A stretch of 63,478 nt of DNA, counting the filler. It is 6 parts of 6 records of this genome, joined end to end, with 100 filler letters (N's around TTAATTAATTAA, not from the genome) between each part and the next. Parts side by side here need not be neighbours in the genome. Positions count along the whole stretch, not along the records: positions 48,184 to 58,336 come from SRR20825006_1886; 5 more parts are not named here. One strand, written 5' to 3'. Of this stretch, positions 29,537 through 58,436 are shown piece by piece. The translations under genes were made by a program, and so were the position numbers. The notes beneath the pieces were generated by a model that saw only the letters and a list, made by a program, of their open reading frames with translations, did no database searches and was not told the DNA's origin. How positions within the stretch are numbered: position 1 is the stretch's first letter; the number at the start of each line of letters is the position of its first letter.

Positions 29537-29636
29537 NNNNNNNNNNNNNNNNNNNNNNNNNNNNNNNNNNNNNNNNNNNNTTAATTAATTAANNNNNNNN
29601 NNNNNNNNNNNNNNNNNNNNNNNNNNNNNNNNNNNN
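29537..29636. other. Artificial contig spacer
   Basis: N-run with TTAATTAATTAA. Confidence 0.99.
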
Positions 29637-33218: not shown

Positions 33219-33761
33219 GCGCGTGCTCCTGCGTGAACAGTCAGCGCGAACAAGGCGATGCTCTCTTTGTTCGCGAAGCGATGATGGTGATCCTCGACAC
33301 CACTTGCATAGCAGATCGCCCGCGCATGCAGCAACCGCGGGCGTGCTCGAGTGAGGCTATAGATGCGCGAACATCCCATCAGAGGTGCGCGCTCAGTATA
33401 CGAATACTCGCGAGCGCGCGCTCACGGTCGCGTCGAGCATTGGCCTCGCGAGATTCTCGCGGGAGATCTTCTCGAGGAGGGCTCGAAACGTGTCGATACG
33501 GGCGTGGAGAACCCTCGGATTTCAGGCTCCTGAGCGGTGTGTTCAGGGGGGCATCCCTTGCAAATTACACGGTGTTCTTCTAGGGTCTCCGATTGGGTGT
33601 AAATCGAGCAATAGCAGGCGTTTCTGCCTGATGGCGCTCTGCCAAATAAGGTTATTTGGTGGAGTTGCTCGAAAGTATGTATGGGGGTGATTCGTATCGT
33701 TTCTTAAATGCGTTGTGAGTCACCTTCTTCGTTTCACGTTTGTTCGCGGGAGAACCAAAAA

Positions 33762-36700
33762 ATGAAAGAATCCTCTAGACACCAAACATCCGCCCAGGCG
33801 GTGTTTGCGGAGGCGAGCGGTGAGGTGTGGAGCCTCGCCAGAAGGCTCGCTTTCGGTGTCGCGCTCCTTTCTATCAGCGCCTTCATATCGGCGTGTGGTG
33901 GTTGCGGAGGTGACAACAACGATACGCCAGATGCATGTGAAGGTGTCACATGCGAGCGCGGCGTCTGTAGCGCGGAGAATGACGGGGTTTGCGTCAACGC
34001 GGACGACTGTTCAGCGGACGCGAACCTCTGTTTGGAAGGGTTCGAGTGTCGCGACGGCAGCTGCCAGACCGACTACCCTTGCAACGACGTCGACAACCCC
34101 TGTGATCGGGGCACCTGCCAGGTTGGCGCATGCGTCAATACGGAGTCGTGCTCGATCGAGGCGGACTGCCTGCCCGGCTACGTCTGTGATGGCGGCGCCT
34201 GCGTCGAAGATCCCTGCGAAAGCGGCGAGGTGACCTGTGATCGCGGCGTCTGCTCTTCGGATGAGGCAGCGTGTGTGAACAAGGAGGTTTGCGCGGCTGC
34301 GTCCGAGGGCGAAGATTGCCTCGAGGGTTACAAGTGCTACGCGCAATCGTGTGTCAACAATGATGAGTTCTGCGCGGCGATCGATTGCCAGCGCGGCATC
34401 TGCTCGTTCGACGAGAAGGCTTGCGTGAGCGCGCCTGATTGTAGCGATGAGAATGGCGATCCTGACGATGGCCTCTGCCTCGCTGGCGAGTACTGCAACG
34501 CGGACAACACCTGCGTGGCAAACGAGTGCGAGATCGGCTCGGTGATGTGTCCTCGCGGCGAGTGCGACCGCGACTCCGGCGAGTGCGTCAACCCCGGCGC
34601 CTGTGATGCATCGCAAGACTGCCTCCCGATGTTCCTCTGCGTGGACAACGTCTGTACGCCAGAAGCCGAGGCTTGTGGCGTCGAGGGATGTCCTGGCAAC
34701 CAGGTCTGCTTCCACGAAGAGATCACGCTCGAGGCGAGCTGCATCGAGGACGTCAACAGCGGCTGCACGAATGCCTTTGACTGTGTCGACGACCGCATCT
34801 GTGTCAATGGCGCCTGCTCACCTCCTCCCGCGTGTGAGCCAGACGCTTACGAGATGAACAATGACGAGATGTCGGCGACGCTCTTCCAGGACGTCGCGCC
34901 GCTCGGGTTCGTGAACGTCAACCTGTGCAGCAACGACGTGGACGTCTACACCTATGACACCGAGCGTGACATCGACGGCATCGGCAAGCTCGTCGTGCAG
35001 CTCGATTACGCCCCCGAAGATATCGGCTTGGGCATCCTCAAGGCAGAGATTCTCTCGCCAAACGGGATGGTCGTCGCTCAGGGTGAGGCCGTCGATGGCC
35101 GCCTCGACCTGAACACCGATGTCACCATCGTCAACAAGGGCGTCTACACTGTGCGCGTCTCCCCCGGAGCATCGGGCGTGACGACAGCAGGTGTGCGCTA
35201 CAGGCTCTCGATCGACGTCGTCGACACGACCGCCATCGACGCCTGCGATATCGCAGATACGGACGCGCCGCTCGCGGCCGACACGATGGTCATGAGCAAC
35301 ACGGTCTCGGGTAACTCGGCGGCGCTCGCGTCGACCTGTGCAGACCCAGACGGCCTTGTCGCAGAGGATATCTACCGCATCGAGGTCCCCACCGCGTCGT
35401 ATGTGACGATCACGGCGACCCCGTCGGATATGGCCTCGGATATCTCCGTGAGCCTTCGCTCGAACTGCTTGCGCAACACCTCACAAGTCCCCGGCTCCTG
35501 TTCGGAGCAGGGCGGCGCTGGCGTCGAGGAGAGCTCCAACGCGCTGCTCTCACCTGGCACCTATTACATCGTCGTCCAGGGCCCCGCTGAGGGGGCCGGC
35601 GGATCTTATAGCCTCGTCTGGTCGCGTCAGGATGTCGTGTGTACGTCTGCTGACAATGGTTGTCAGGACGCCAACACCGCGCAGGTTTGTCGCCCCGACG
35701 GCACGGGCTTCGACACGGAGAACTGTCTCCAGGGCTGCAACATGATGCAGGGCGCGTGTAATCGCCTCGATGGCGACCTGTGCTCGACGGCGACGACGGT
35801 CGATCCTGTGACGGGTTACACCGGCATGATTCCCTGGGGGAGCTACCGCTCCGACTACGATCCTGGCGTGGGTGGTTGCGTGATCACCAGCGACGCAGGG
35901 CAGACCCCGACGGATGGCCCCGATGTGACCTACTCGGTCACGTTGCAGCCAAACCAGGGCGTGGTCGTCGACCTCACCTCGAACGGCAACGACGTCAGCC
36001 TCTACGCTGTGACCGATTGCTTCGACGTGACCTCGACCTGTCAGGTTGGCGCCAACGCCAACGACGCGGCGTCGAACAACGACGAGTTCCTCTTCTACGC
36101 CAACCAGGGCGCCACCGCCGAGACGATCCTTCTCGTCGCTGATGTCGCCGCGAGCGCGGACGGCACCTACACCGACTCGGCGATCACCATCTCGGTCAAC
36201 GACATCATCTGTACGCCTGGCGAGGTTAGCTGTAGCGCGGCCGACGAGAGCCAGCAGTGTGATCCGACCGGTACCGGTTATGATGTCCTCGAGGCGTGTC
36301 AGTTTGGCTGTGATGCGAACAGCGGCCTCTGCCTGACGCCTCCAAACGACACCTGCTCGGGCGCGATCGCGCTCACCTCGGGCGTGCCTGCCATGGCCGA
36401 GCTCGGGGATTACTCGAACACCGATGAACTTAGCAGCAGCGACTGCACGGGCTTCTCCACCCCTGGCGGCGACGCGATTTACACGATCGCGGTCCAGGAG
36501 AATGACATCGTCGATGTCCTCTTGACCGCACCGTTCGATGGCGCGGTCTGGGTCGCGACGACCTGTGATCCTGCCAACGATACGCTGGTCGGTTCCTGCA
36601 TCGGCGGCGCCGATGAGAACTTCACCGGCGGCGACGAGCAAGTCCAGGTGGTCGCGCCGTTCACGGGCGATCTCTACGTGGTCGCGACCTCGTTCTCGGC

Positions 36701-39700
36701 GTCCGGCTCCGGCGTGTTCTCGCTGACGGCGACCGTGACCACCCCCGAGTGTACGCGCGGCCAGCCCGCGACCTGTAGCTCGGGCACCACGCTCGAGTAC
36801 TGCGACAACATCGGCTTCTTGCAGAACTACACCTGCTCGACGACATGCACCAACGGCGCATGCGACGATCCCATCGGTGACATCTGCCCCGATCCCAAGG
36901 TGCTCGATCCTCTCGGCGGCTCGATCGTTGGCGACACGTTCGGTGGCACCAACAGCATCGAGTTCCCCGAGGGTGTCTCTGGCAACTGCTACGTCGGCTC
37001 GTTCGATGAGACCGACGGCGACGAGAACATCTACAGCATCGACCTCGCTGCTGGAGACCTCTTCTCGCTCGATGTGGACTCTCCCGAGACCACCATCAAC
37101 GCCTTCGTGCTCGAGAACTGCTACGAGCTCGATTCGTGCCAGAAGAACTTCCTGAGCGAGGGTCCAAACTCGCTCGAGTTCTACGCGCAGACGGCGGGGA
37201 CGTACTTTGTCGTGATCGACACCTCGGACAACTCGAGCTCGGATCCCTACGACCTGACCTGGTCGGTGACCTCCGGGTTGGTGTGTGCTCCTGGGCAGAC
37301 CTACTGCCAGGACGCGACGACGATGGCCAAGTGTGATGACGCTGGTTCCAGCGCGCTGTTCACGACCACGTGCGCCAATGGCTGCCAGGCTGGCTACTGT
37401 CTGCCTGACCTCACGACGACCGACACGTGTTCGGCGGCGTCGATGGCCACGGACGTCGGCCAGGGCATCTCGGCGGTCTTTAGCTACGATGACCTGACCA
37501 ACGACGTCGAGATGCAGACGCCAAACTGCGTCGGTCAACTCACCGATGGTCCTGACGCCTTCTACAAGGTGACGCTCCAGCCGACCGAGATCCTCCAGGC
37601 GAGCGTCATCTCGATCTACGAGTTCGACGATCCTCAGGTGTACGCGTTCACTGACTGCGCCGACCCTGTCGGTACGTGTGTGGCGGGCGCGCCTGAGCTC
37701 GGCGGGGATAACACCTCCGAGATCCAGTGGGCGAACGACACGGGCGCCCCAGTCACGCTTATCGTGGCCGCGGACAACGAGTCGAGCTTTGCGGACGAGC
37801 CCTTCATCTTCAACATCGCGGTGCGCACTCCCGAGTGTGTGCCTGGCGAGCGTACGTGTCAGCCAACCCCTGGCATCAACGACCAGCTCCGCCTCTGCAA
37901 TGATGTCGGCCTCTACGACATCTACACCTGCGATGGCGCGTGTGGGACCAACGCTCCGGGAACCTGTGATTCTCCGAGCGGTGAGATCTGCTTCGACCCG
38001 ATCCCTCTGCGCGACCCGGCTCAACCCGGCGCGACGAGCGGCGAGTTTGTCGACCAGTCCTTCCTGACTGGCGACGACGTGACGCTGCTCGAGGGACGCA
38101 CGGGAAGCTGCAACATCGACACCGCTGACCAGTCCGATGGTCCAGATACCTTCTACACGATCTCGCTCGCTGCGGGTGATGTCTTGACGGCAGACCTGAT
38201 CACGACCGAGACGACCGCGTACGTGATGATCCTCGAGGATTGCTCCGCGGATTCGTGCGTCGCCAACAACGTCAACCCTGGCGCTGCCTCGGTGACGTAC
38301 TACGCTGATGCACCTCGCGATGTGTTTGTCGTGGTCGACTCGACCACGACCACCTCGCTCGATCCATACACCTTGCGTTGGAACGTCCAGAGCGGCCTCG
38401 CGTGTGCTCCCGGCCAGTTCCGCTGTATTGATGCCACGACGCTCGGCGCGTGCTCCAATGATGGCCTGACGGAAGCATCCGTCACCTGTCCTGGCGCATG
38501 TGATGGCAACACCTGCGTCGCAGATCCGCTGACGGGCGACACCTGTACGGCAGCCTCGGCAGCACCTGCTGTGACGGGCTCCTACTCGACCTATGCGAGC
38601 TACGATGACCTGACCAATGACATCGACATGCCATCGTCGAGCTGTGCAGGACAACAAACCGATGGCCCTGACCTCTTCGTTCCTGTCGAGGTCCAGGCTG
38701 GCCAGATCCTCTCGGCGCGCGTCGAGTCGTTCGGAGACGAGCCTCCGATCGTCTTCATGGTGACGGATTGTGCTGCCCCCGAGACGAGCTGCGTCGCTGG
38801 CGGCGAAGAGCTCGGCACGAGCAACGTCGCGACGGCGACCTGGGTCAACGACACGGGCGCTCCTGCGACCGTGCTCGTCGCTGCGGATAACGAGTTCTCG
38901 ACCGCAGACGAGCCCTTCGGTCTGTTCATCAGCCTGCGCTCGCCAGAGTGTACGCCTGGCGCTCGCCAGTGCGTGCCAAACTCGAGCACGTTGCAGATCT
39001 GTAACGAGTTCGGACTCTACGACAACTACACCTGTAACGGTGGTTGCGGAAACCTGAACCAGGGCCGCTGTGACAACCCCACGGGTGATGTCTGCGCGGA
39101 CGCGTTCGTGATGACCTACCCGAGCGGGTCGGTCGTCGACGCGGCGTTCGAGGGCTCGAACAGCTTCGAGCTTGGCCAGGGCGCGACGGGCGGTTGCTTC
39201 ATCGACGACTTCGATGAGAACGACGGCCCCGACACGCACTACAGCATCGATCTGCAAGCGGGCGATGTCCTGGATGTGACGTTGACCACGGCGCACACGG
39301 CGGCGCACCTCTTCCTCTCGGAAGGGTGCTCGCCGACGTCCTGTGTCGATAACCTGTGGCAGCAAGGTAGCGGCACGCTCAGCTACTACGCGCCTCAGGC
39401 GACCACGGTGTATGTCGCCGTGGACACCGACTTCACCTCTGCCGTCAGCGAGCCCTACACGCTCGAGTGGAACGTGCGCACCGGCCTCGCCTGTGTGCCC
39501 GGCGAGTCGCGTTGTACTGGCCCGAATATGCTCGGCGTCTGCTCGAACGATGGCAGCTCCGAGTCCATGGTCACCTGCCCAGGCGCTTGCGAAGGCAAGG
39601 CGTGTGTCGCAGATGCTGTGGCCAATGACATCTGCGCGACGGTCGCCGCAGGTCCAGACATCGGCGCGGGCATCTCTGTCTCGTCGAACTTCGACCTGCT

Positions 39701-42700
39701 GACCAACGATGTGCAGATGGCGACGCCAAACTGCACCGGCCAGATTACCGACGGCCCTGACCTCTTCTACAAGGTCACCGTCCAACCTGGTGAAGTCCTC
39801 GTGGCGAGCCTCGAGTCCTATGGCGACGAGGATCCGCTGTTGTACGCGATCGAGGATTGCGCCGCCGCTGAAGCGACCTGCCTGGCGGGCGCTCAGGAGG
39901 TCGGAAGCACGAACTACAACGAGATCCTCTGGGCGAACGACACCGGCATGCCGAAGTCGCTTATCGTCGGCGCGGACTCCGAGCTGAGCACGGCGAACGA
40001 GGTCTTCGGGCTCTCCATCGCAGTGCGTCCTCCCGAGTGTACTCCTGGCCAGCAGGAGTGCGGCGGCGACTCGCTCAAGCTCTGCAACGAGTTCAGCCTG
40101 TTCGACATCTACCAGTGTGATGGTGGCTGCGGGAACTTGCAGCCAGGTCGCTGTGACAACCCCACGGGCGATGTCTGCATCGACGCGCTCACGCTAACCT
40201 ACCCGAGCGGCTCGATCGTCGATTCGCAGTTCGAGGGCAACAACACCTACCAACTCCCAGAAGGGCGCACGGGTGGTTGCTTCATCGACAGCTTCGATGA
40301 GAACGATGGCCCTGACACCTTCTACCGCATCGACCTCCAGGCCAATGACGTCGTGGACGTCAAGCTGACCACCAACCACCCGGAAGCCTACCTCTTCCTC
40401 CTGGAAGGGTGTGGCGCGGCCGCGGATTGTCGCGACAACCTGTGGCAGCAAGGAAGTGGCACGCTCACTTACTACGCACCTCAGGCGACCTCGCTTCTGG
40501 TCGCGGTGGATACGGATGATGCGTCACCTTCGGATACGGACCTCTACACGCTCGAGTGGAGCGTGCGCACGGGTCTCAACTGTGCTCCGAGCGGCTACCG
40601 CTGCCTGGACGCGACGACGCTCGGCATCTGCTCGCCGGATGGCGCCGTCGAGACGCCCGTGACCTGTTCGGTCGGCTGCGAAGCTGGCGGTTGCGTCGAA
40701 GATGCGATGGCCAACGACGACTGCTCGTTGGTCGCTGGTGGCACAGACATCGGCGCTGGCATCGCTGTCTACACGACCTTCGACGGTCGCACCGACAGCG
40801 TCGATATGCCGACGCCAAACTGCACCGGTCAGGTCACCGATGGTCCCGACTTCTTCTACAAGGTCAACGTGCCCGCCGGGAACGTCCTCCACGCCTACGT
40901 CGAGTCGTACGGTGACGAGGACCCACTGGTCTACGGCATCACGGACTGCAACACCCCCGATGCGACCTGCGTCGGCGGTGGGCAGGAGTTTGGCTCGACC
41001 AACCGCTCCGAGTTCTACTGGGTCAACGACACGGGCCTCACCGCCACGATCATCGTGGGCGCGGACTCCGAGTCGACGACAGCAGACGAGCCTGTCGGCT
41101 TGTTCATCGAGAACCTCCAGCCTCAGTGCACCGCTGGCGCGGTGAACTGTAACGCGGGGCAGCTCGAGATCTGCAACCAGTTCGGTCTCTACGACTACTA
41201 CGCCTGCGATGGCGGTCAGTGTAACGCGACCAACGACGCCTGCCTCAACCCGAGGGGTGATGTCTGCGCGGACGCGGTCACGCTCATCGACGCCAACGGC
41301 GTGGGTGGCCCGAGCGGTTCGGTCACCGGTGACTTCACCGGCACCAACACGGTGGTCTTCCCCTCGGGACGTTCTGCTGCATGTCACGTCGATTCGTTCG
41401 ACGAGTCTGACGACGCAGACACGTTCTACCGCGTCGAGCTCAAGGCCAACGATGTGCTGCGAGCACAGCTCGTGACCGGCAACTCCGGCGCGCACATCTA
41501 CCTGACGACCACATGCGGTGACGCGAGCACCTGCCTTGCCAACGACTTCAACCTCGGCGGCGGCACGATCTCGTACTTCTCTTCTGTGGATCAGACGGTG
41601 TTCATCGGCATCGACTCCTCGGTGGCTTCGACGGCGGACTACACGCTCAACTACGAGGTCACAAACGGCCTCGCGTGTGCGCCGAACCAGTTCACCTGTA
41701 AGGATGCGATGAACCTGAGCAAGTGCTCGGCGGACGGTCTCACCGAGACGGTCGTGCCTTGCAACTGCGTCGACGGCGCATGCGTCGATGATGTGGCAAA
41801 CAACGACACCTGCGCAGCAGCAGTGGCGGCTCCGCTCGTCGGCGATGCGTACGCGATGTTTGGCACCTTCGATGACCACACCGATGACATCCAGATGGCG
41901 ACGCCAAACTGCACCAACAACCTGACCGATGGTCCTGACGCGTTCGTGCGCGTCGAGCTCGCGCCAAACGAGATCCTCCACGCATGGGTCGACTCGTTCG
42001 GTGATGAAGGCCCGCTCGTCTACGCATTCTCCGATTGCGCTGATGCAGAGAACTCCTGTGTGGCGGGCGCTTCCGAGAGCGGAAGCACCGACCGCGCAGA
42101 GCTCTACCACGTCAACAACACGGGCGCGCCGCTCACGTTGTTCGTCGCGGCAGACTCGACCTTCTCGACCGCGGACGAGCCCTTCGGCTTGTTCGTCGAG
42201 AAGCTCCAGCCTCAGTGCGTGGCCAACACCTCGCAGTGTGGCGCCGACGGCTCGACGCTCGAGATCTGCAACGAGTTCGGGGTCTACGAGTACTACACGT
42301 GTAATGGCGCCTGTGACCCTCAGACGGGTTTCTGCGCCAACCCCACGGGTGATATCTGCCTCGACACGATCAAGGTCAACGACGTGGCAGCTGGCACGAC
42401 GATGACGCCTCAGACCTACAGCTACACGGGCATCCTGTTCAGCTCGCTTACCAACTCTCAAACGTTGGATAACGCGAACGGCTGTACATCGTTCGATGGC
42501 GCTAATGGTCCTGACGCGATCTTCCAGGTCACCCTGTTGCCGAACCAGACCGTGGATGTCAGCCAGACCTCGTTGAACGAGGACAGCGTCGTCTACATTC
42601 TCACCGACTGTGGCGATGGCGGCGCATCCTGCGTCGACGGCGGCGATGACACCTTCACCGGTGGCACCGAGACGGCGACCTACACCAACACCACTGGCAT

Positions 42701-42782
42701 GAACCAGACCGTGTTCGTGGTCGCCGATGCTTACTTCACCACAGCGACCGATGCCTTCGACATCGACATCACCGTGCGTTGA
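33762..42782 (+). CDS. Giant (~3000 aa) Cys-rich surface lipoprotein with tandem PPC-like beta-sandwich repeats
   Basis: ATG after GGAG; lipobox FISAC; EGF-like Cys-rich N-terminus; CEPDAYEMNN/DVDVY PPC-like domain; repeated DGPD.FY.V/I.L domains separated by Cys-rich spacers. Confidence 0.85.
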   Translation: MKESSRHQTSAQAVFAEASGEVWSLARRLAFGVALLSISAFISACGGCGGDNNDTPDACEGVTCERGVCSAENDGVCVNADDCSADANLCLEGFECRDGSCQTDYPCNDVDNPCDRGTCQVGACVNTESCSIEADCLPGYVCDGGACVEDPCESGEVTCDRGVCSSDEAACVNKEVCAAASEGEDCLEGYKCYAQSCVNNDEFCAAIDCQRGICSFDEKACVSAPDCSDENGDPDDGLCLAGEYCNADNTCVANECEIGSVMCPRGECDRDSGECVNPGACDASQDCLPMFLCVDNVCTPEAEACGVEGCPGNQVCFHEEITLEASCIEDVNSGCTNAFDCVDDRICVNGACSPPPACEPDAYEMNNDEMSATLFQDVAPLGFVNVNLCSNDVDVYTYDTERDIDGIGKLVVQLDYAPEDIGLGILKAEILSPNGMVVAQGEAVDGRLDLNTDVTIVNKGVYTVRVSPGASGVTTAGVRYRLSIDVVDTTAIDACDIADTDAPLAADTMVMSNTVSGNSAALASTCADPDGLVAEDIYRIEVPTASYVTITATPSDMASDISVSLRSNCLRNTSQVPGSCSEQGGAGVEESSNALLSPGTYYIVVQGPAEGAGGSYSLVWSRQDVVCTSADNGCQDANTAQVCRPDGTGFDTENCLQGCNMMQGACNRLDGDLCSTATTVDPVTGYTGMIPWGSYRSDYDPGVGGCVITSDAGQTPTDGPDVTYSVTLQPNQGVVVDLTSNGNDVSLYAVTDCFDVTSTCQVGANANDAASNNDEFLFYANQGATAETILLVADVAASADGTYTDSAITISVNDIICTPGEVSCSAADESQQCDPTGTGYDVLEACQFGCDANSGLCLTPPNDTCSGAIALTSGVPAMAELGDYSNTDELSSSDCTGFSTPGGDAIYTIAVQENDIVDVLLTAPFDGAVWVATTCDPANDTLVGSCIGGADENFTGGDEQVQVVAPFTGDLYVVATSFSASGSGVFSLTATVTTPECTRGQPATCSSGTTLEYCDNIGFLQNYTCSTTCTNGACDDPIGDICPDPKVLDPLGGSIVGDTFGGTNSIEFPEGVSGNCYVGSFDETDGDENIYSIDLAAGDLFSLDVDSPETTINAFVLENCYELDSCQKNFLSEGPNSLEFYAQTAGTYFVVIDTSDNSSSDPYDLTWSVTSGLVCAPGQTYCQDATTMAKCDDAGSSALFTTTCANGCQAGYCLPDLTTTDTCSAASMATDVGQGISAVFSYDDLTNDVEMQTPNCVGQLTDGPDAFYKVTLQPTEILQASVISIYEFDDPQVYAFTDCADPVGTCVAGAPELGGDNTSEIQWANDTGAPVTLIVAADNESSFADEPFIFNIAVRTPECVPGERTCQPTPGINDQLRLCNDVGLYDIYTCDGACGTNAPGTCDSPSGEICFDPIPLRDPAQPGATSGEFVDQSFLTGDDVTLLEGRTGSCNIDTADQSDGPDTFYTISLAAGDVLTADLITTETTAYVMILEDCSADSCVANNVNPGAASVTYYADAPRDVFVVVDSTTTTSLDPYTLRWNVQSGLACAPGQFRCIDATTLGACSNDGLTEASVTCPGACDGNTCVADPLTGDTCTAASAAPAVTGSYSTYASYDDLTNDIDMPSSSCAGQQTDGPDLFVPVEVQAGQILSARVESFGDEPPIVFMVTDCAAPETSCVAGGEELGTSNVATATWVNDTGAPATVLVAADNEFSTADEPFGLFISLRSPECTPGARQCVPNSSTLQICNEFGLYDNYTCNGGCGNLNQGRCDNPTGDVCADAFVMTYPSGSVVDAAFEGSNSFELGQGATGGCFIDDFDENDGPDTHYSIDLQAGDVLDVTLTTAHTAAHLFLSEGCSPTSCVDNLWQQGSGTLSYYAPQATTVYVAVDTDFTSAVSEPYTLEWNVRTGLACVPGESRCTGPNMLGVCSNDGSSESMVTCPGACEGKACVADAVANDICATVAAGPDIGAGISVSSNFDLLTNDVQMATPNCTGQITDGPDLFYKVTVQPGEVLVASLESYGDEDPLLYAIEDCAAAEATCLAGAQEVGSTNYNEILWANDTGMPKSLIVGADSELSTANEVFGLSIAVRPPECTPGQQECGGDSLKLCNEFSLFDIYQCDGGCGNLQPGRCDNPTGDVCIDALTLTYPSGSIVDSQFEGNNTYQLPEGRTGGCFIDSFDENDGPDTFYRIDLQANDVVDVKLTTNHPEAYLFLLEGCGAAADCRDNLWQQGSGTLTYYAPQATSLLVAVDTDDASPSDTDLYTLEWSVRTGLNCAPSGYRCLDATTLGICSPDGAVETPVTCSVGCEAGGCVEDAMANDDCSLVAGGTDIGAGIAVYTTFDGRTDSVDMPTPNCTGQVTDGPDFFYKVNVPAGNVLHAYVESYGDEDPLVYGITDCNTPDATCVGGGQEFGSTNRSEFYWVNDTGLTATIIVGADSESTTADEPVGLFIENLQPQCTAGAVNCNAGQLEICNQFGLYDYYACDGGQCNATNDACLNPRGDVCADAVTLIDANGVGGPSGSVTGDFTGTNTVVFPSGRSAACHVDSFDESDDADTFYRVELKANDVLRAQLVTGNSGAHIYLTTTCGDASTCLANDFNLGGGTISYFSSVDQTVFIGIDSSVASTADYTLNYEVTNGLACAPNQFTCKDAMNLSKCSADGLTETVVPCNCVDGACVDDVANNDTCAAAVAAPLVGDAYAMFGTFDDHTDDIQMATPNCTNNLTDGPDAFVRVELAPNEILHAWVDSFGDEGPLVYAFSDCADAENSCVAGASESGSTDRAELYHVNNTGAPLTLFVAADSTFSTADEPFGLFVEKLQPQCVANTSQCGADGSTLEICNEFGVYEYYTCNGACDPQTGFCANPTGDICLDTIKVNDVAAGTTMTPQTYSYTGILFSSLTNSQTLDNANGCTSFDGANGPDAIFQVTLLPNQTVDVSQTSLNEDSVVYILTDCGDGGASCVDGGDDTFTGGTETATYTNTTGMNQTVFVVADAYFTTATDAFDIDITVR
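36870..42340 (+). repeat. Five tandem ~1.09-kb (~364 aa) intragenic repeats
   Basis: Unit start P(I/S/T/R)G(D/E)(I/V)C recurs near 36870, 37975, 39079, 40160, 41250 and 42340. Confidence 0.85.
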
Positions 42783-42903: not shown

Positions 42904-43003
42904 NNNNNNNNNNNNNNNNNNNNNNNNNNNNNNNNNNNNNNNNNNNNTTAATTAATTAANNNNNNNNNNNNNNNNNNNNNNNNNNNNNNNNNNNNNNNNN
43001 NNN
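42904..43003. other. Artificial contig spacer
   Basis: N-run with TTAATTAATTAA. Confidence 0.99.
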
Positions 43004-48083: not shown

Positions 48084-48183
48084 NNNNNNNNNNNNNNNNN
48101 NNNNNNNNNNNNNNNNNNNNNNNNNNNTTAATTAATTAANNNNNNNNNNNNNNNNNNNNNNNNNNNNNNNNNNNNNNNNNNNN
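48084..48183. other. Artificial contig spacer
   Basis: N-run with TTAATTAATTAA. Confidence 0.99.
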
Positions 48184-48984
48184 AACCGCCTGATCCATAT
48201 CGGCATCGGGCATAATGATCATGTGGTTTTTCGCACCACCAAGGGCCTGACAACGTTTGCACTGCGCGGTTGCGGTTTCATAGATGTATTTGGCAATCGG
48301 GGTCGAACCGACAAAGCTGATTGCGGTGACGTCCGCATCAAACAAAAGCGCATCGACAGCTTCTTTGTCGCCCTGAACAACGTTAAATACGCCATTCGGA
48401 AGACCTGCCTCGGTCAGCCATTCGGCCAGCAGCAACGCTGCGGACGGATCGCGTTCTGATGGTTTGAGGATAAAGCAGTTGCCACATGCAAGGGCAACCG
48501 GGAACATCCACATCGGCACCATCGCCGGGAAGTTGAACGGCGTGATCCCGGCAACAATGCCAAGCGGCTGACGGATCGAATGACTATCAACTTTGGTGCC
48601 GACGTTTTCGGTGAACTCACCCTTAAGCAACTGCGGGGCGCCGGTTGCAAATTCAACAACCTCAATCCCGCGGGTGACTTCACCCAGCGCATCGGACAGA
48701 ACCTTGCCGTGTTCGGCGGTGATGGCTGCGGCCAATTCTTCGGCGCGGTCTTCCAGAATGCCAAGGAATTTGTTCAGGATACGCGAACGGCGCAGCGGGG
48801 TTGTGTTGGCCCATTCGTCGCGCACGGCGACGGCGGATTCAACAGCAGCGCGGACTTCGGATTTCGAGGCAAGATCAACCGTCGCACTTTGCGCACCGGT
48901 TGCCGGATTGAAAACCGGTGCTGAACGACCGGACGTACCGGCAACGCGCTTGCCGTTGATATAGTGGGTGAGCTGGTTGGACAT
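48184..48984 (-). CDS. mmsA: CoA-acylating methylmalonate-semialdehyde dehydrogenase (3' truncated)
   Basis: [55 protein letters not shown]. Confidence 0.92.
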
Positions 48985-49137
48985 TAGGTGTCTCCCGATA
49001 AACCTGATTTGGTGATTGCGTGATGATAGCATCCGCAAAGTGTCCTTATTATGCCTATGCACAGCGATGCACATCAATTATCATTCCTGCAAATTCGATG
49101 TGCAAAAATTAAAGTCGCATAAAGGCCGTTACCGATT

Positions 49138-50025
49138 ATGGATTGGGATCGCTTTCGCATATTCCTTGCCGTCGCCAGACAGGGACAAATCCTTGGCGCA
49201 GCCCGGCTACTTGGCCTGAACCATGCAACCGTGGGCCGACAACTGACCACGCTTGAGCAGGAACTGGGCATTAAACTGATCGAACGGCGCACCACCGGGT
49301 CGGAGTTAACCGCCGCCGGGCGAGAGCTTATGCAGGCGGCAGAGGCGGCTGAATCTGCCTTCCTTCGGGCCGGAACGGCGGTTTCGAACCGCACAGAATC
49401 CATAAGTGGCACCGTGCGCGTCGGTGTCCCGGACGGGCTTGGTAACTATTTTCTGGCAAGTGAGCTGGCCGGTTTTGCGGCAGAACATCCCGATCTTGTG
49501 ATCCAGTTGGTCCCGCTTCCGCGCACATTCTCGCTGTCACAGCGCGAAGCCGATATCGCCATCACCCTTGATCGTCCGAAACAAGGCCGTTTGGTGATCA
49601 AGAAACTCACCGACTATACGCTCAGCGTCTATGCCACCAACGCCTATATCGCGCGGTTTGGGGTGGTGGATACAGAAGCCGACTTATCTGATCGCTTGTT
49701 TGTCACCCATATCGAAGATTTGATTTACAGCCGCGCACTTGATTATGCCGCCCGCCTTGGCAAATTGATGCGCCGACGCTTTGAATGCGGTAGCGTGGTT
49801 GCCCAGATGGAAGCTGTCCACAACGGGCACGGCATCGGCATCCTGCATGATTACGCCACCAAAGGCGTGCCTGATCTGATCCGTTTACTGCCCGAAATCC
49901 GCTTTACGCGCAATTACTGGATGCTCCAGCACCCGGACACCAAAGACACCAGAAGTGTCGCCGCCGTTGCGGAATACATTACCCGTGTCGTCCGCACAGA
50001 ACGCGACCGGTTTGTAATGAGCTAA
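49138..50025 (+). CDS. LysR-family transcriptional regulator, divergent from mmsA
   Basis: [40 protein letters not shown]; 295 aa. Confidence 0.95.
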
Positions 50026-50093
50026 AGCAAGTCTCTCAGATGCCCCGCATTGCACAAAAGATATCCACCCTAACCAAAGCATACCAAAATAAG

Positions 50094-50128
50094 AACGGGC
50101 CCAAAGACGTTTCGTCTTTGGGCCCGTT
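50094..50128. terminator. Bidirectional terminator between convergent genes
   Basis: AACGGGCCCAAAGACG-TTT-CGTCTTTGGGCCCGTT (16-bp stem). Confidence 0.8.
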
Positions 50129-50196
50129 AATGGTGCGTGCCATGTCCAGAAAAGAGCAGCGTGACGTCAACCAGCCGCCAAACTAGTGACCATCGG

Positions 50197-50601
50197 TCAC
50201 TTTTTTCGCCAATCCACATCAATCACTTGTTGCTTGGACATTCTGCGCAGGTTTTCTTCGAAGTAATCGCGGATTTGATTCAGTCCCTTGCCATCCGAGG
50301 CCGACATCGCGACCGTCAAAAATGACGAACTGGCAGAAATTTCACATACACCGTCTTCAAAGGCCAGAAGCCCTCTGTTCGGGTCCCGCAGCTCCCCGCG
50401 AACAGGTTCCTGCGCTTCTCCAAGAAACTCTTGAAGGTAAACGGGGGCATTGCGTACATAGATATCAGCAAAACAATAGTTGGCGTCCATTTCCCGATCC
50501 AATCCAACATCAGGCAGGTCTGGCATCTCTGGTGAATGAGCCGTTGCTTCCTCACCTGTATCTTCCCCGACATCTTTCGCACTGATCATCCGGTCAGACA
50601 T
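50197..50601 (-). CDS. DUF2218-like small protein
   Basis: Pattern A..YL...F.DGVCEI.A...L.V...D...L.......L.R......V.W resembles DUF2218; acidic N-terminal extension. Confidence 0.45.
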   Translation of the reverse strand: MSDRMISAKDVGEDTGEEATAHSPEMPDLPDVGLDREMDANYCFADIYVRNAPVYLQEFLGEAQEPVRGELRDPNRGLLAFEDGVCEISASSSFLTVAMSASDGKGLNQIRDYFEENLRRMSKQQVIDVDWRKK

Positions 50602-50856
50602 GCACAAACCCATTTTTCCAATGGTGCCAAACGTGCACCAAGCTAATCCCCTTACCCCTTTCGCATGCATAGCACAGAGCCATCGCACGCGGCAATAGTG
50701 ACCATTGGTCACTAAAATGTGAGGCGTTTGTGTAACCCCGCATTCCTAAAGGCAAAATGTCGCAAAATTCCAAGATCGCAAGTCTTGGACGCAACTTTTT
50801 TAAAGAAAATTGCTGCATCCGCACAAATTATTGATTTTTGGCGGCTTTTTAGACGC

Positions 50857-50894
50857 AAAAAAACGGGCGTCCTAGCCTAGGATCGCCCGCTTTG
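50857..50894 (-). terminator. Rho-independent terminator of FAH-family remnant
   Basis: A7 tract followed by CGGGCG.TCCTAG-C-CTAGGA.TCGCCCG imperfect stem. Confidence 0.6.
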
Positions 50895-50934
50895 TCATAA
50901 AATTTTAAAGATACTGGAACAGTGCAGTTGCCTT

Positions 50935-51330
50935 CTAACCCTGAACAACTTCCTGTCGCTGGCAGCTCAGACCTTCGAATCCAAGCTCCATTACATCATC
51001 GGGCTTTAAGAACACTTGCGGGTTTTGCCCCATCCCAACACCGGGTGGCCTGCCAGTTGAAATGATATCACCGGGCTGCAAGCTCATGAAGCTCGACAGG
51101 TAGCTCACCACAAACGCAACCCCATATACCATGGTCTTTGTACTGCCATCCTGATAGCGCTTGTTATCGATATCCAGCCACATCGACAGGTTCTGTGGAT
51201 CTGCGATCTCATCACGGGTGACAAGCCACGGGCCGGTGGGGCCAAAAGTATCGGCACTTTTTCCCTTTACCCATTGCCCGGAATGTTCAAGTTGAAAGGC
51301 GCGCTCCGAAACGTCATTGGTCAGGCAACG
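50935..51330 (-). pseudogene. 5'-truncated fumarylacetoacetate-hydrolase-family (ureidoglycolate lyase/FAHD-like) remnant
   Basis: Only the C-terminal half is present (NDVSERAFQ, WVKGKSADTFGPTGPW, LQPGDIISTG); conserved GTPPGVG reads GRPPGVG; the N-terminal part with the metal-binding ExE is absent. Confidence 0.75.
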
Positions 51331-51669
51331 GCCCCAGCTTTTCCTTACCCAATGGGCCATAGCGCAAAAGTTTCAGCATCTACCTCCCGATATTATTTAT
51401 TGTTGCTTATTCTGCACCGTTCTGGCCGCACTGCCGCAATCCCCGGATACAGACATATTCATTCCTCATACAATAGTGTTGTCACAGCATGAAGCCAAAG
51501 CGCAAGTCATGTGGTTTTCAAAATCACTTTCTTGAACCTCACATCCTCAAAAGTAAGGAGTGGAGAACCGCTCCAATTCTATGAAGTCGTTGCACTTCGC
51601 GACATTGCGCTCGATGATGATTGCAATACGCGCCTACTCGAACAAATTGACAAAGGAAGTGCCTCCCCC

Positions 51670-52623
51670 ATGCGTATCGCCATTCTTGACGATTATCAGA
51701 ACCTTGCCCTGCAATCCGCCAATTGGTCGGAAGTTCTATCCTTTAGCGAGATCACGGTTTTCAATGACACAATCACCAAACAAGACGATTTACGTTCCCG
51801 GTTAGAACCGTTTGATGTGATCTGCGTCATGCGCGAAAGAACCCCGTTTTCGGGTGAGCTTATCGGTGCACTTCCGAACCTGAAACTGATTGTCACGACC
51901 GGCAAACGCAATGCCGCAATCGATGTTGCTGCGGCAACCAAACTGGGGATCACGGTTTGCGGGACAGATTCCCCGTCGACAGCGACGCCTGAGCTTACCT
52001 TTGCCTTGATGTTGGGTTTGGCACGCAACCTCGTTCCTGAAAACGCGTCAATGCGTAGCGGCGGCTGGCAAGTCGGTCTTGGGCAAGATCTTGCCGGATC
52101 AACACTTGGCATCATCGGGCTGGGGCGATTGGGTGCAAATGTAGCCAAGATTGCACAGGCCTTTGGCATGCATGTCACGGCCTGGAGCACAAACTTAACT
52201 CAGGATCGCTGCGATGAAATTGGCGTTGAGTTCAAAGACAGTAAAGAAGCCCTGTTGCGCGACGCCGATTTTGTCACCATCCATCAACGGCTGTCTGATA
52301 GAACACGGGGGTTGATCGGCAACGAAGAATTCAAGAAAATGAAGTCGAGTGCCTATCTGATCAATACATCGCGCGGGCCGATTATCGATGATGTTGCATT
52401 GATTGATGCGATAAATTCCGGTGAAATCGCCGGTGCAGGCATTGATGTCTATGACATTGAACCGCTGCCACCCTCCCACCCGTTGCGCCAATGCGAGGGG
52501 CTATTACTTACACCGCATCTTGGCTATGTCACACAACATACTTGGGAGGTATTTTACGGCCAAACCGCCACGGCCATTGCCGCATGGATTAATGGCAGGC
52601 CACATGGCGTCATCACGTCCTGA
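51670..52623 (+). CDS. D-2-hydroxyacid dehydrogenase family protein
   Basis: MRIAILDDYQ, MRERTPF, NAAID, GIIGLGRLG, INTSRGPII, DVYDIEPLP, TPHLGYV. Confidence 0.93.
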   Translation: MRIAILDDYQNLALQSANWSEVLSFSEITVFNDTITKQDDLRSRLEPFDVICVMRERTPFSGELIGALPNLKLIVTTGKRNAAIDVAAATKLGITVCGTDSPSTATPELTFALMLGLARNLVPENASMRSGGWQVGLGQDLAGSTLGIIGLGRLGANVAKIAQAFGMHVTAWSTNLTQDRCDEIGVEFKDSKEALLRDADFVTIHQRLSDRTRGLIGNEEFKKMKSSAYLINTSRGPIIDDVALIDAINSGEIAGAGIDVYDIEPLPPSHPLRQCEGLLLTPHLGYVTQHTWEVFYGQTATAIAAWINGRPHGVITS

Positions 52624-52903
52624 CGACTGGCGATACGGCCCTGCAATTACCATCGGCAAAATTCATGATATTTCCCGCATGACTTTTGTCCGCACGGGTT
52701 CCAACTAAAAATTGCAAATAACCATTAAACTTTAACTTATTTTTTTACACCTGCACTTGAAAACAAGGTAGGAACAACGTCATATTCGGTACTGAAGGCT
52801 GACGGGGAAATCAATTAGATCAACGCAATAGAAAAATGAACGAGCACATTAATCGCGTTTGAGAAATTTTGATTTTAGGTACAGCGTTTGAAGGGGCCAG
52901 ACG

Positions 52904-55900
52904 TTGCAAAAGAAAGAAGTAAATCAGCTGGCGACGCGGGCGGATACGAAACACTATCCTCTCACGTCACCTCAAGCTGCCATTTGGCTCGATCTGGCCA
53001 AAGGCCGTGATCCTGCACAATATAATGTGTGCAATATTCTCGAGTTTGACGGCGATCTCGACATTGCCTTGTTGCACCAAGCCATCGCCCAAAGTGATCG
53101 CGAAAATGATGCTCTGCGGCTGCGCTTTTCAAACCACGAAGGCCAGATCACGCAATTCTTTGCCGATGAATGCCTCCCAACCGATTTTGATGTCATTGAT
53201 CTACAATCCTCTGATGATCCAAATGCCGCGGCCTTGGTCGAAGTCAGGGCCTTGCAAAGCAGACAGCTTTCTTTTGAAACTGGCGAAAACTGTCGCCATC
53301 GGCTGTTGCAGTTAAGCAAAAAGCTTTTCTGGTGGGTCCGCGTTTATCATCACATTGTGATTGACGGTTATGCCGGTCATTTGATCGCCGAACGGGTTGC
53401 GTCGATCTATAACGCACTTCAAACAAAGACAGCCATTCCCAACTGCCCGTTTCATTCCTACCGCACTTTCGTTGAAGCTGACGCCACCTATGCGAACAGC
53501 CCCGCATATCAACGTGATCTGACCTATTGGCGCGACCGCCTGACACCTGACAAGCAACCATCGCAATTCTCGGCCCGTCCAACCCCCAAGACGCAAAAAA
53601 ATGCGCAATTTACACGCATGTTGGACAGCGAAACACTGCAGGCACTGCAGAACGTGTCGCGCGCATTTGGCATGTCATCCGCGGCAATGACGATGAGCAT
53701 TTTTGCCATCTTGCTTGGACGGATTACACATCAAAATCATCCTGTCTGGAATATGCCAATCCTTAACCGGCTTGGAAAGGCAGAACGAAACACGCCGGGC
53801 ACATTCACCTGTGTTGTGCCCTATGATGTTAATTTGGATGAACACAAAAGTTTATCGGAATTAGGCAAAGCCATCCTTGCCAAAACCCGCGGTGATCTTC
53901 GCCATGCCCGGATAACCCCAGTACGTTTGCGTATGGCAAATCTTGGCGTGAAAAGCCTTTCTGCATCTGGTGCCCTGTTCAACAGTCTTGATGCGGCGAA
54001 ACCGATTACGTTTGCCGGTCTCTCAACCCGGTTCATTAACATTCAGGTCGGCCCGGCAAGTGACATCAACCTCGCATTCTTTAGCGAAACCAGCGCCCCA
54101 AACAACTCAAGAGCTGAATTGATCTGGCAATTCGATGCCAATCGCATTGATGAGCAGGCCGTCACACAGATTGCCGATCAGTTTGAACTGATCCTTGCAT
54201 CGGTATTGGCAAATCCCGATCAAGATATCGACACCATTGGCAGTGCTGTTGATATTGATCAGGAAAGCCTTGGTCTAACGGGCCAGACACTCGGCACGCC
54301 ATCCATCCCGTCCCGCCCTGCAGTCACGACAGAACTCGTTTCGCAGGATGAAAAGCAGCTTGCCGCTGATATCACCCGAATCTGGACCGGATTGATCAGG
54401 AATGACGATATTGGGCCAGACGATAATGTTATCGAAGCGGGGGCGCATTCACTGTTGCTGCCGCGTGCTCAATATGCGCTGTCGCAACGAATTGGGCGTG
54501 ATATTTCGCTGGATGAAATTGTTGAAAACCCGACCATAAACGCCCTGACAAGGCATATCTGCGATACCTATTCCGATATCAAGACCGTATTGGCCAATGC
54601 CGATCAAGATATAGACGCGGCAAACGGCCTAGCGCGCACAAACACTGTTGATATCGCGCGCCACCGTATTGCTGAAATTACCTCGCATGATCGCCAACAG
54701 CTTGTTGCAGACATTACCGGCATCTGGGCCGGATTGCTTGAATATGATGATATCGGGCCGGACGACAATCTGATCGAAGCAGGGGCACATTCGATGCTTC
54801 TGCCCCGCGTACAGTATGAGATTTCGCAACTTTTCGGGATTGAATTGTCCCTGCTTGAGATTGTCGAATGCGCAACAATTAACGCCATCGCAGATCGTAT
54901 CTGTGACACCTACCCCAATTTCAAGACCGTCCGTGACAGTGCCATTTCTGCCGCCCTCGTGTCAGAAGATGCACATGCTTCCGATCCATTTTTGGCAAAA
55001 AAACTGCCTGTCATCTGGCCAAATGGCCTTCACATATTGCCGTTCAGCGCCACGACCCGCAATGAACTCGACAAAATCACAGAACAGGCTTGTGCACAAC
55101 TCAGTGACGATGGGGCAACTGACCGGCTCACCATTCTGGCGACGCAACTGGCAGCCGCCGCGGCCTATCCAGAACGTGTAGCGATCGTTGCGAACGATAC
55201 GGCATCAGCCATCGACGCGCTTACGTCCAATCGCTCGACAAGGCGCATTGACGCGAGCCTTTCGGGTGATGCTGTCAAAACCTTTTTGCTGTTTCCCGGA
55301 CAAGGATCGCAACGTCCGGGAATGGCACGTGCGCTGTTTGACGTCGACCCGGATTGCGCAAAACTGATTAATCTCGCCTGCAAGAAAGTTGCCGGTTTTT
55401 CCGGGCCGGTTGACCTGCGTGATTTGCTTTTATCGCCAGATCAAACACCGGCTGAAACAGCAAAGCTTGCTGGCACCGACTATGCCCAGCCAGCTTTGTT
55501 TATCTTTGAATATGCGCTTGCAAGCTGGCTGATGCTGTTTGGCGTCACACCATCAGGTCTGGCTGGACATAGTATCGGTGAATATGTTGCAGCCTGCATT
55601 GCAGGCGTCATGTCCTTTGAAGATGCGCTGCGCCTTGTTGTGATGCGCGGCAAGTTGATGAGTCAAACGGCACCCGGTGCGATGTATGCCCTTTCCATGC
55701 CCGAAGAGGAGGTCACAGGTCTTCTGGCACAATTTGGCCCGGGACTTTCTTTGGCCGCGAAAAACGGACCGCGCCAGCATGTGATTTCCGGTGATATTGC
55801 ATCGGTTGATCGCCTTGAAAACCAACTGAAGGCTGCCGGAAAAACTGGCAAACGTCTGATGGTTTCGCGTGCTTTCCATTCTGATCTGATGAACCCGATC

Positions 55901-58336
55901 CTCGCGGCATTTCGTGACGAATTTGCATCTATCACCCTGCATCCACCGCAAATCCCGATCCAGTCGAACCTGACGGGGGCATGGCTGACGGATGAAGATG
56001 CGACAAATCCCGACTATTGGATGCGTCATTTGCGTCATGGCGTCCGGTTTGCAGATAACATTGACGGCCTTTTGTCATCCTCGCCCGACGCCTTGTTTAT
56101 CGAATGCGGTCCGGGCAATACGGCGACCCGTCTGGCGGCTGTAAACGGCGTCAAGGTAGAACAGTGCATTGCCCTGCAACCTGCCTCAAACCCCGAAAGC
56201 ATGGAGCAGAAAATATTTGCGGGACAGGATGCGCTGGCCCTTGGTCTTGCTGCTATCTGGGCAAAGGGGACTGCGTTTGCGGCATCTCCCGAAAATGCGA
56301 TCCCCACGTCAAAAGCCCCCCCACTTCGGCATGTCAGCACGCAAAAGCGGGAAGTTGGCCCCTCAGGTACCACGGATGGTGCAAAGCCCGGCCCCATCAT
56401 TGCGACTTTCCCGGCCCATCCCGCAGTCGAAGGGCAATGGTTGGCCCGTCGCGATAAGCCCGCAGACAACAGCCATCACATTATTGTCAGCTTCCGCTTG
56501 CCGCAAAATACCAGTTTTGAGGATGCAAAACGCGCCCTTGAGCAGGTCATAGACCGCAATGACGCCCTGCGTTCCACATTTGACGAACACCAAGGCCAGC
56601 TCCTGCAGCGCGTCCACGCCACGATGCCGGTCCCGATCGGCCGACTAAATCGCGTTGAAGATATCCGAATTGGCCTGTTTGATCTGCGCACCGGCCCCTT
56701 AGCCCGATTTGGCTATGTTGAACAAAGCAGTTCGCGGCCGTCGCTTTTGGCACTTGCCATTGACCACATGTGCTTTGACGGACAATCCACCGCGATGCTG
56801 GAGCGCGCGTTTCTCGACGCGCTAGACGGCATTGAGAAACCCCGTCCTGAAACGGCACAATCAGTTGCCGAACGCAGACATAAAGATTTGGCTGGCATCC
56901 GCGGGCAATCTGGAAAGAATTTCTGGAAAGAACACAGTGAATTGCTACTGGCACCCCCATTGCCCGGCGGATCGGATGCGACACATCCCGGCCATTCCAC
57001 CCGTCTGTTTAAAAAGCTGAGCGACGAACAGGTTGACGCCTTTACAACGCTCTCGCGCCGCATCAAAAGCGCCACGCCAACGGCGATCTGGAACGCGCTT
57101 ATCATGGCCGTAATTGCAAGGCACAAGGAACATAACATCGCGGTTCTCGGGCAGCCGTTTTCCGGGCGGCATGGTCGAGACGACCAACAGGTCATCGGTT
57201 GCTTTGCCAACGTTTTGCCAATTGCGATCAAGCTCGACATGCAAGCAGGTTTTGATGTGTTGGTCGGTAATGTTGGCCGTGAAATGCTGTCGATGCTTGA
57301 TGTGCAGGATTATCCGTTATCGCATGTGATCAAAGACCTGTCACAGAAGGCACAGGCGCCGGTCAATCTGCCGTTTGACGCGGTCAGCACCATCGAATTC
57401 AACGAAAATATTGACGACATAAGCGATATTGATTTTGGGGCGGGAAAGTTCCCCTTGATGGCAACACTTCTTAAATGTGGTGCCGGATCATTTATCGTCA
57501 TTGAACATCAAACGTCGCTATATGGCCCTCGATGGGCGGAACGATTTGCCGAACGACTGGTCTCGTTCCTTGGCAAACTGGCCAAAGAACCAGGAAAACC
57601 ACTAGGCGAAATTGATATTCTGCCCGATGAAGAACGGCAGATTTTGATCGAAGACCTCAACGCGACACATTCCCGATATCCACGTGACACGGGACTTGGC
57701 GAATTGCTGGCACGGCGCATTCAAGACCCGACATGTGCCAACCGCATCGCGATTGACGATGGCAAAACCAAAATCAGTTACCCCGAACTCGGAAGTCTTC
57801 TTTCCAGATTGGCGCGCAAGCTTGATGAAATCGGTGTCCAACCCGGTCAAACTGTTGCCCTTGCAACAGAACGCAATATGGATGCGGTTATCGCCCTGCT
57901 AGCGCTGGTCTGGCATGGCAATGTCTATCTTCCCATCGACAAATCCCTGCCGGCAAAGGCGATTGCCGATCTGATGGAAGAATGCGGCGCCAAAACGCTT
58001 CTGTGCAGCCCGCATGAACAAGACCGATTGGCGGAACTTTCGACACGTTTCACCCTTGCCCCGCTACCGACCGCAGACATGGATGCGGACACAGACGCAA
58101 CAACAGCCAAATTCAACCTCCCTGCGAAACGGTTGGGGGATGACCTTGCTTATGTCATGTTTACATCCGGATCGACGGGCAAACCAAAAGGCGTTCTGGT
58201 GCCCAACCGGGCCGTTGCCCGCCTTGTTGTGAACAACCCCGCTTTGCCATTTGATGAAAACGACGTCGTAGCACAAGCCGCGTCCCTTGGCTTTGATGCG
58301 GCAACGCTTGAAATCTGGGCACCGCTTCTGAATGGC
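52904..58336 (+). CDS. Hybrid NRPS with domain order C-T-T-AT-C-A (3' truncated)
   Basis: C1 HHIVIDG (53348); T1 GAHSL (Ser 54449); T2 GAHSM (Ser 54791); AT FPGQGSQ, GHSIG (Ser 55571), RAFHS; C2 DHMCFDG (56762); A YVMFTSGSTGKPKG, FDAATLEIW. Confidence 0.9.
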
Positions 58337-58436
58337 NNNNNNNNNNNNNNNNNNNNNNNNNNNNNNNNNNNNNNNNNNNNTTAATTAATTAANNNNNNNN
58401 NNNNNNNNNNNNNNNNNNNNNNNNNNNNNNNNNNNN
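58337..58436. other. Artificial contig spacer
   Basis: N-run with TTAATTAATTAA. Confidence 0.99.

Follow-up and report, generated by a model that had tools for sequence, protein, structure and literature searches.

A ketosynthase-less acyltransferase at the head of a thalassospiramide-type megasynthase gene, a candidate malonyl supplier for a distant module

What does an acyltransferase (AT) do in a nonribosomal peptide synthetase (NRPS) when it has no ketosynthase (KS) beside it? The question is raised by an open reading frame at positions 52904-58336 (+ strand) of a 63,478-nt stretch of DNA (the window), which a first, sequence-only reading had described as an NRPS of the order C-T-T-AT-C-A (C, condensation; T, carrier; A, adenylation domain), with an AT that lacks a KS and a first module that lacks an A domain. 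Pfam matches and motif positions confirmed this description, and a Pfam scan of the frame found no ketoacyl-synthase domain. The frame starts with TTG at 52904 and is still open at the contig end at 58336, which gives 1811 real codons. The single open frame of the earlier description stood, but it has no natural end and stops at an artificial spacer; 52904-58336 is the head of a gene, about the first third of a megasynthase, and not the whole of it. The visible order is C–T–T–(KS-AT linker)AT–C–A(partial), the catalytic motifs are all intact, and the features are as follows.

52904..58336, + strand: 5' 1811 codons of the predicted thalassospiramide-type NRPS-polyketide synthase (PKS) megasynthase gene, truncated by the contig end; the orthologue has 5777 aa
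52949..54268, + strand: C1, starter-type condensation domain (aa 16-455, HHIVIDG at 149-155)
54377..54559, + strand: T1 carrier (aa about 492-552, Ser516 in GAHS)
54710..54901, + strand: T2 carrier (aa 603-666, Ser630 in GAHS), an old tandem duplicate of T1
55031..55288, + strand: KS-to-AT linker without a KS (aa 710-795, beginning HILPFSATT)
55289..56113, + strand: AT, malonyl-type (aa 796-1070; Pfam Acyl_transf_1, E=7e-43)
56114..56410, + strand: post-AT linker leading directly into C2 with no carrier (the protein has only two PP-binding stretches)
56411..57646, + strand: C2 condensation domain (aa about 1170-1581, DHMCFDG at 1287-1293)
57737..58336, + strand: A2 adenylation domain, N-terminal about 200 aa only (core motif A3 at aa 1753, FDAATLE at 1797)

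The motifs HHxxxDG, GHSIG, RAFHS, DHMCFDG and D-A-L and the KS-AT linker were located as first described, all of them intact. The AT carries GQGSQ (799-803), GHSIG with Ser890 (888-892), Arg915 and RAFHS with His992 (989-993); the features of a malonyl-CoA:ACP transacylase (ACP, acyl carrier protein) are present, namely the GHSxG serine, the xAFH histidine, a carboxylate-binding arginine 25 residues past the serine and GQGSQ. By the motif-to-substrate rule for such domains, its YAQPALF, GHSIGE and xAFHS motifs mark a malonyl-type AT. The preceding stretch ILPFSATT...YPERVAIVA aligned to the post-KS linker of KS-AT proteins. Linker and AT together aligned to the excised ZmaA AT structure (chain residues 13-382), to the CurL KS-AT (491-862) and to the DEBS KS-AT didomain, and the CurL and DEBS alignments begin just past their KS; the Pfam KS-AT linker model scored below its cut-off (20.1 vs 27 bits). 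The arrangement is not that of a canonical cis-AT PKS module, having neither a KS nor a carrier 3' of the AT, and it is not that of a discrete trans-AT, the AT sitting between T2 and C2 in a single frame. The A domain at the contig end is incomplete, its AMP-binding match (aa 1612-1812) spanning profile positions 9-232 of 384 in Pfam.

A misassembly at the T2-AT junction, which the sequence-only reading had allowed for, was not found. The NRPS-bearing contig (48184-58336, 10,153 bp) aligned end to end and gap-free, over 10,153 columns at 96.2% DNA identity, with the closed chromosome of T. lucentensis Mv1 (locus L004). A second assembly (L001) gave 94% identity over the contig, and the NRPS gene (52700-58336) was 77% identical to its counterparts in T. 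lohafexi and T. lucentensis DSM 14000. By these comparisons the contig comes from a near relative of T. lucentensis Mv1 within Thalassospira. In L004 the frame stays open over at least 3782 aa and has, as far as KS4, the domain order of a full-length orthologue (P0388, 5777 aa), which is 94.7% identical in amino acid sequence, with 0 gaps, to window residues 1-1811. The map of P0388, obtained by BLAST together with a Pfam scan of its last 2537 residues, is C1-T-T-AT-C2-A2-T2-C3-A3-T3-KS4-linker-(weak DH)-KR-T-T-C5-T5-C6 (DH, dehydratase; KR, ketoreductase). No second Acyl_transf_1 was found in this protein and no AMP-binding domain in its residues 3241-5777; its only KS, in module 4, has no AT, and its only AT has no KS. 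The module order 1, 2 (Val), 3 (Ser), 4 (KS-DH-KR-T-T without AT), 5 and C6 was present in P0388 and L004. In a representative search with residues 1-1200, P0122 (3174 aa, partial, from a Thalassospira metagenome-assembled genome) was, among the 150 matches listed, the only protein whose best stretch spans carrier, AT and C2 (query 600-1200). In a search among longer proteins, a single alignment with P0122 covered 70% of the query at 51% identity, and the order of this protein is C-T-AT-C-A-T-C-A-T-KS. The rest of the 150 proteins were dominated by giant PKSs, and six others were checked by BLAST.

A relationship to thalassospiramide assembly lines, put forward at the start as something to test, proved real. 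The closest proteins of similar length were Thalassospira proteins of 2121-2163 aa with the order C-A-T-KS-AT-T. Identity to these was about 48% over C1 and about 50% over linker and AT, and their first carrier was 53-59% identical to T1 and about 45% identical to T2. In both P0002 and P0007 the TSGSTG core contains Gly631, and the A10 motif contains Lys972. In the published work on the Ttc line (bioRxiv 10.1101/560987), TtcA was mutated at G631D and K972A, its C1a is a starter C domain, it has KS1b and AT1b, and its gene exceeds 6.5 kb. Because Gly631 and Lys972 are the residues mutated in TtcA and the description matches, the C-A-T-KS-AT-T relatives can be equated with TtcA. The starter C of the window is homologous to TtcA C1a (46-54% identity to C1 of Thalassospira and Fodinicurvata proteins), and the nearest relatives of C1, T and AT are TtcA-like. 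With TtcA and TtcB of the Thalassospira sp. CNJ-328 type, from the same genus as the window (P0002-P0012; L010, L012, L015, L017 and L018), the frame shares the starter C (46-49%), the carrier, linker and AT (47-53%) and a C2 with DHxxFDG (45-47%). In the Ttc line, however, C-A-T-KS-AT-T is a separate protein followed by TtcB, whereas in the window A1a, KS1b and T1b are gone, T1 is doubled and the genes are fused; linker and AT are kept, and the post-AT alignment to TtcA-like proteins ends before their ACP. The earlier suggestion of a module-deletion derivative fits this pattern.

The T1/T2 duplication is a 384-bp unit (54203-54586 and 54587-54970) with a mean column identity of 77% at the DNA level, and with copies diverged to this extent it is therefore not a collapsed repeat. 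Both T1 and T2 match the peptidyl carrier of TtcA-like proteins and not their C-terminal ACP. Tandem Repeats Finder called no array at T1/T2 because the copies are too diverged. The 30-nt stretches at the starts of the two units (54203-54232 and 54587-54616, encoding VLAN(P/A)DQDID) are 90% identical and thus better kept than the rest of the unit.

The distribution of the architecture was surveyed by scanning a single genome of each species with six aligned C1 domains as the query, and the domains were mapped by tblastn. Eighteen loci were recovered, 17 from Thalassospira and one from Fodinicurvata, and 16 of them were informative, the other two ending right after C1 or inside A. The order C-T-T-AT-C-A-C-A-KS was present in 4 of these 16 (L001, L002, L003, L004) and C-T-AT-C-A-C-A-KS in 6 (L005, L006, L007, L008, L013, L016). 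Five loci had C-A-T-KS-AT followed by C-A (L010, L012, L015, L017, L018), and one, that of F. fenggangensis (L009), had C-T followed by C-A-C-A-KS with no AT. All 10 KS-less loci read as a single uninterrupted frame from C1 to the locus end (3188 to 3791 codons), whereas the Ttc-type loci have two genes. The carrier-to-linker junction is identical in the window and P0122, the KS being cleanly removed up to the start of the ILPFSA linker. In a tree of C1 and C2 the loci of the C-T-T-AT form grouped together (support 100), and their sister was one of the two clades into which the C-T-AT form fell; the Ttc form was also a single clade; the deepest split has no resolved root, and the tree leaves one versus two KS losses undecided.

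The 11 KS-less ATs of the window and these 10 loci have all retained GHSIGE, the arginine 25 residues past the serine and AFHS (11/11 each), and GQGSQ is present in 10 of the 11 (L008 has GQGAQ). The five Ttc-type ATs have the same motif state. By the Nei-Gojobori method, dN/dS between the window and L002 or L003 was 0.145 and 0.147, respectively, for the AT core, compared with 0.164 and 0.159 for C1, 0.162 and 0.149 for C2 and 0.11-0.15 for the carriers; over the whole frame it was about 0.2-0.3. The identity of the AT to distant KS-less relatives (53-57%) was no lower than that of C1 or C2. Because the active site is kept in 11/11 and dN/dS is like that of the neighbouring domains, the orphan AT, as judged by these measures, is functional rather than decaying and under the same constraint as the essential domains around it. 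Relatives with an intact KS, which had been mentioned at first together with decay in this frame, do exist, but no decay was found in the window.

Several properties of the characterized lines bear on what such an AT could serve (bioRxiv 10.1101/560987). In both Ttc and Ttm a fatty acid is attached to the first amino acid through N-acylation by the starter C domain, and C1a and C1, respectively, are essential. Mutagenesis in Ttm and Ttc showed that T1, even without an A domain of its own, receives its amino acid from A3 (Ser) or A2 (Val) further downstream. Tandem carriers increase flux or yield only and leave the products unchanged. Module 4 is AT-less in both lines and receives malonyl from an AT outside the module, and the AT that serves module 4 partly complements AT1b, so that ATs can act across modules (bioRxiv 10.1101/560987). 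Expression of ttc in E. coli is reported to have been unsuccessful, possibly because a compatible AT was missing there.

We propose with moderate confidence that the frame encodes the first part of an NRPS-PKS megasynthase of the thalassospiramide type and that its orphan AT is an active malonyl-CoA transacylase that loads module 4. In effect the gene would join TtcA to TtcB, minus the A domain of module 1 and minus the KS and the carrier of the small PKS module 1b, whose AT is retained. The carriers that the orphan AT would load are those of module 4, which lie 3400 residues further along the same protein or belong to a dimer partner; the AT would serve as an internal 'trans' AT, either together with the FabD of the cell or in its place. 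The duplicated T1/T2 could offset slow inter-module loading, and the products expected would be thalassospiramides of the A-like or E-like type that lack a statine unit at position 1. Of the roles offered by the sequence-only reading, service to a downstream AT-less KS is the best available, the only KS of the orthologue being without an AT. Since module 4 is the only malonyl-consuming step left after the loss of KS1b and T1b, the orphan AT is most simply its supplier, and supply of malonyl to this AT-less module is its most likely function.

Several points weigh against this assignment. The window is visible only up to A2, and modules 3-6 are known from orthologues alone; the role of the AT is inferred from sequence, which makes it a candidate only. 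The terminal module, expected on a separate TtcC- or TtmB-like protein with MT (methyltransferase), A, T and TE (thioesterase), and any free-standing AT fall outside all loci compared (10-kb flanks) and beyond the contig end. Ttm is able to make thalassospiramide A in P. putida although it has no AT at all; primary metabolism can therefore serve module 4. For the Ttc AT1b mutant the accessible text reports an effect on B-like analogues only (8-24% left), and AT1b thus appears dispensable for module 4 in the Ttc line (bioRxiv 10.1101/560987). The orphan AT may be redundant with FabD.

A different explanation is that the AT, a remnant of the lost module 1b, has no catalytic task and persists only to space T from C2 or to support the fold there, with module 4 served entirely by FabD, as in Ttm. 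Ttm works and the F. fenggangensis locus exists without any in-line AT, and mutation of Ttc AT1b is reported, in the accessible text, to affect only B-like products. Yet the active-site Ser, His and Arg are kept in 11/11 KS-less ATs at 47-96% identity, the AT core, with a dN/dS of 0.145-0.147, is on a par with the essential C domains, and 10/10 KS-less Thalassospira loci kept the AT while cleanly losing A, KS and ACP. We therefore consider a vestigial AT unlikely. Cross-module action of AT, A, MT and possibly KR domains is documented in this family, and in the C-T-T-AT clade the second carrier directly precedes the AT. Both would suit a KS-less extension station, in which the AT malonylates T2 (or T1), KS4 extends the acyl-amino acid across modules and B-like statine units persist. 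This is improbable, since 6/10 KS-less loci have a single T and still keep the AT, T2 was copied from the peptidyl carrier T1 and not from the ACP T1b, and the strain chemistry is limited to an A-type signal. Slightly more doubtful still is the specific form in which the orphan AT and T2 make up the station and the single KS of module 4 serves it across about 2,600 residues; if it were true, a KS1b-deleted line would still build statine-type first units, with one KS acting at two places.

The other role first suggested for the AT was as a replacement for the missing A domain, loading acyl or malonyl units on T1/T2 for condensation by C1 or C2. The AT does adjoin the A-less carriers, but this role found no support and we regard it as very improbable: the motifs are malonyl-type, a malonyl thioester has no amine for the acceptor site of C1, the first module also lacks an A domain in Ttm and L009, which have no AT at all, and published mutagenesis indicates that T1 is loaded by A2/A3. 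There is next to no likelihood of an assembly artefact or a decaying pseudogene. The contig is short and ends inside genes on both sides, and the window joins contigs of differing G+C; against this stand the gap-free colinearity with a closed chromosome and with three further assemblies, the divergence of T1 and T2 (about 77% DNA identity, not collapsed), and frames that are open in all 10 related loci with an overall dN/dS of about 0.2-0.3.

By sequence comparison the window frame is a member of the thalassospiramide synthetase family, in a configuration intermediate to those of the 'most complete' line, Ttc, and the 'most incomplete' one, Ttm. With TtmA of Tistrella mobilis it shares an A-less module 1, a giant protein running from C1 and an AT-less module 4 with tandem carriers, and an A-less module 5 is common to TtmA and the orthologue P0388. 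As compared from the text of that paper, Ttm is described without the whole of module 1b, whereas the window line retains the 1b AT (bioRxiv 10.1101/560987). Among seven full-length KS-less orthologues, the module 5 A domain is absent in P0388, P0389, P0412 and P0423, as in Ttm, and present in P0427, P0433 and P0449, as in Ttc. With 4/7 lacking A5 and 3/7 having it, its loss varies independently of the loss of KS1b. In Fodinicurvata (F. sediminis P0011, with C-T-KS-AT-ACP, and F. fenggangensis L009) the A-less C-T junction is contiguous and homologous, at 43% identity over query 1-585. The Fodinicurvata AT is 52-53% identical to that of the window, but P0011 keeps the KS and ACP, and L009 has no AT. 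L009 and P0275 carry the starter C and carrier as a separate small protein (615 and 602 aa, respectively), and the next gene starts with C2. Trans-AT PKSs share the proposed principle of one AT supplying malonyl to an AT-less module; their AT is free-standing, however, whereas that of the window lies within the polypeptide and is of cis-AT module descent, outside the trans-AT clade.

Thalassospiramide lines are the textbook case of domains that act beyond the module they belong to. The comparison in the published work was restricted to the two extremes, Ttc as the most complete line and Ttm as the most incomplete, and that work calls it unclear whether intermediate configurations function (bioRxiv 10.1101/560987). 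The window holds one such intermediate configuration, and across ten species-level lineages the KS-less AT proves to be conserved and selected for; the question of which AT feeds module 4 thereby becomes simple to test. The arrangement with the orphan AT is a natural and conserved variation on an assembly line already known, and not a new kind of enzyme or pathway. According to a review (PMC5577590), an earlier study covered public genomes and 26 newly sequenced Thalassospira genomes, and because these were inspected the C-T-T-AT architecture has very probably been seen before. Our literature searches on thalassospiramide clusters found no open paper describing this form, with two primary cluster papers outside their coverage. 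As for an identical architecture already characterised, which the sequence-only reading had also considered, the form occurs in public genomes of an experimentally studied family, but the configuration itself is not characterised in the accessible text. Strains typed as T. lucentensis gave an m/z 958.55 thalassospiramide A signal with a ring fragment (PMC5377448 Table 1). An A-type signal from such strains would fit a working line.

The variant motif of C2, DHxxFDG, was present in 17/17 sequences, those of Ttc type included, and C2 is catalytically required in Ttm (bioRxiv 10.1101/560987); for these reasons it is a family trait and not a sign of decay. By motif anchoring in the complete orthologue, the A2 pocket is DALWMGGTFK and the A3 pocket DVWHFSLVDK, and the A2 pocket is the same over all 16 loci (Ttc-type and KS-less) save one M/L difference at one position. 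We take DALWMGGTFK to be a Val-like code and DVWHFSLVDK to be a Ser code. The published assignments are that A2 loads Val and A3 loads Ser (bioRxiv 10.1101/560987). The A2 orthologue (L004 14801-16390) matched the second A domain of LgrA, a linear gramicidin synthase, with 493 bits over chain residues 1242-1718; the next-best solved A domain scored 345 bits, which makes LgrA an unexpectedly close cross-phylum match.

The 63,478-nt window is made up of six contigs (G+C 0.42 to 0.65) joined by five spacers. Genes that a spacer separates are not neighbours, and the six pieces may come from more than one organism. The spacers and the rest of the NRPS-bearing contig are as follows.

14639-14738, 29537-29636, 42904-43003, 48084-48183 and 58337-58436: contig spacers N44-TTAATTAATTAA-N44, artificial
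48184..52903: truncated aldehyde dehydrogenase (- strand), LysR (+), DUF2218 (-), FAA-hydrolase fragment (-) and D-2-hydroxyacid dehydrogenase (+)

The gene set in 48184..52903 is syntenic with T. lucentensis Mv1, and contig annotation and the synteny comparison gave no evidence of a pathway role for it. The genes upstream of the megasynthase in the NRPS contig and L004 differ from those in T. lohafexi and T. lucentensis DSM 14000, in which the D-2-hydroxyacid dehydrogenase and the megasynthase are directly preceded by an aryl-polyene-like gene set (L002 1-6414 and the same region of L003). That set comprises two KS-like genes, an ApeP-like dehydratase, a KR, DUF3261, a halogenase-like flavoprotein and an MMPL fragment. 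The KS-like match upstream in L002 and L003 was considered as a part of the megasynthase line and rejected, as it belongs to this neighbouring aryl-polyene-type, fatty-acid-synthase-like set.

The BNR/sortilin and AcrB genes past 58437 lie on a different contig and are not neighbours of the NRPS, and no NRPS/PKS continuation was found among the large open reading frames scanned on the other contigs of the window. The sole related item is at 4675-7017 (+ strand), on another contig, where a fatty acyl-AMP ligase (FAAL)-like AMP-binding domain, a DIP2-like domain and a PP-binding domain form a FAAL-ACP didomain. A protein of this type could pass a fatty acid to a starter C domain; it has no link to the NRPS contig. 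An open reading frame of 3024 aa at 33708-42779 (+ strand), on a contig of 63% G+C, has only a weak Pfam match, to the pre-peptidase C-terminal (PPC) domain.

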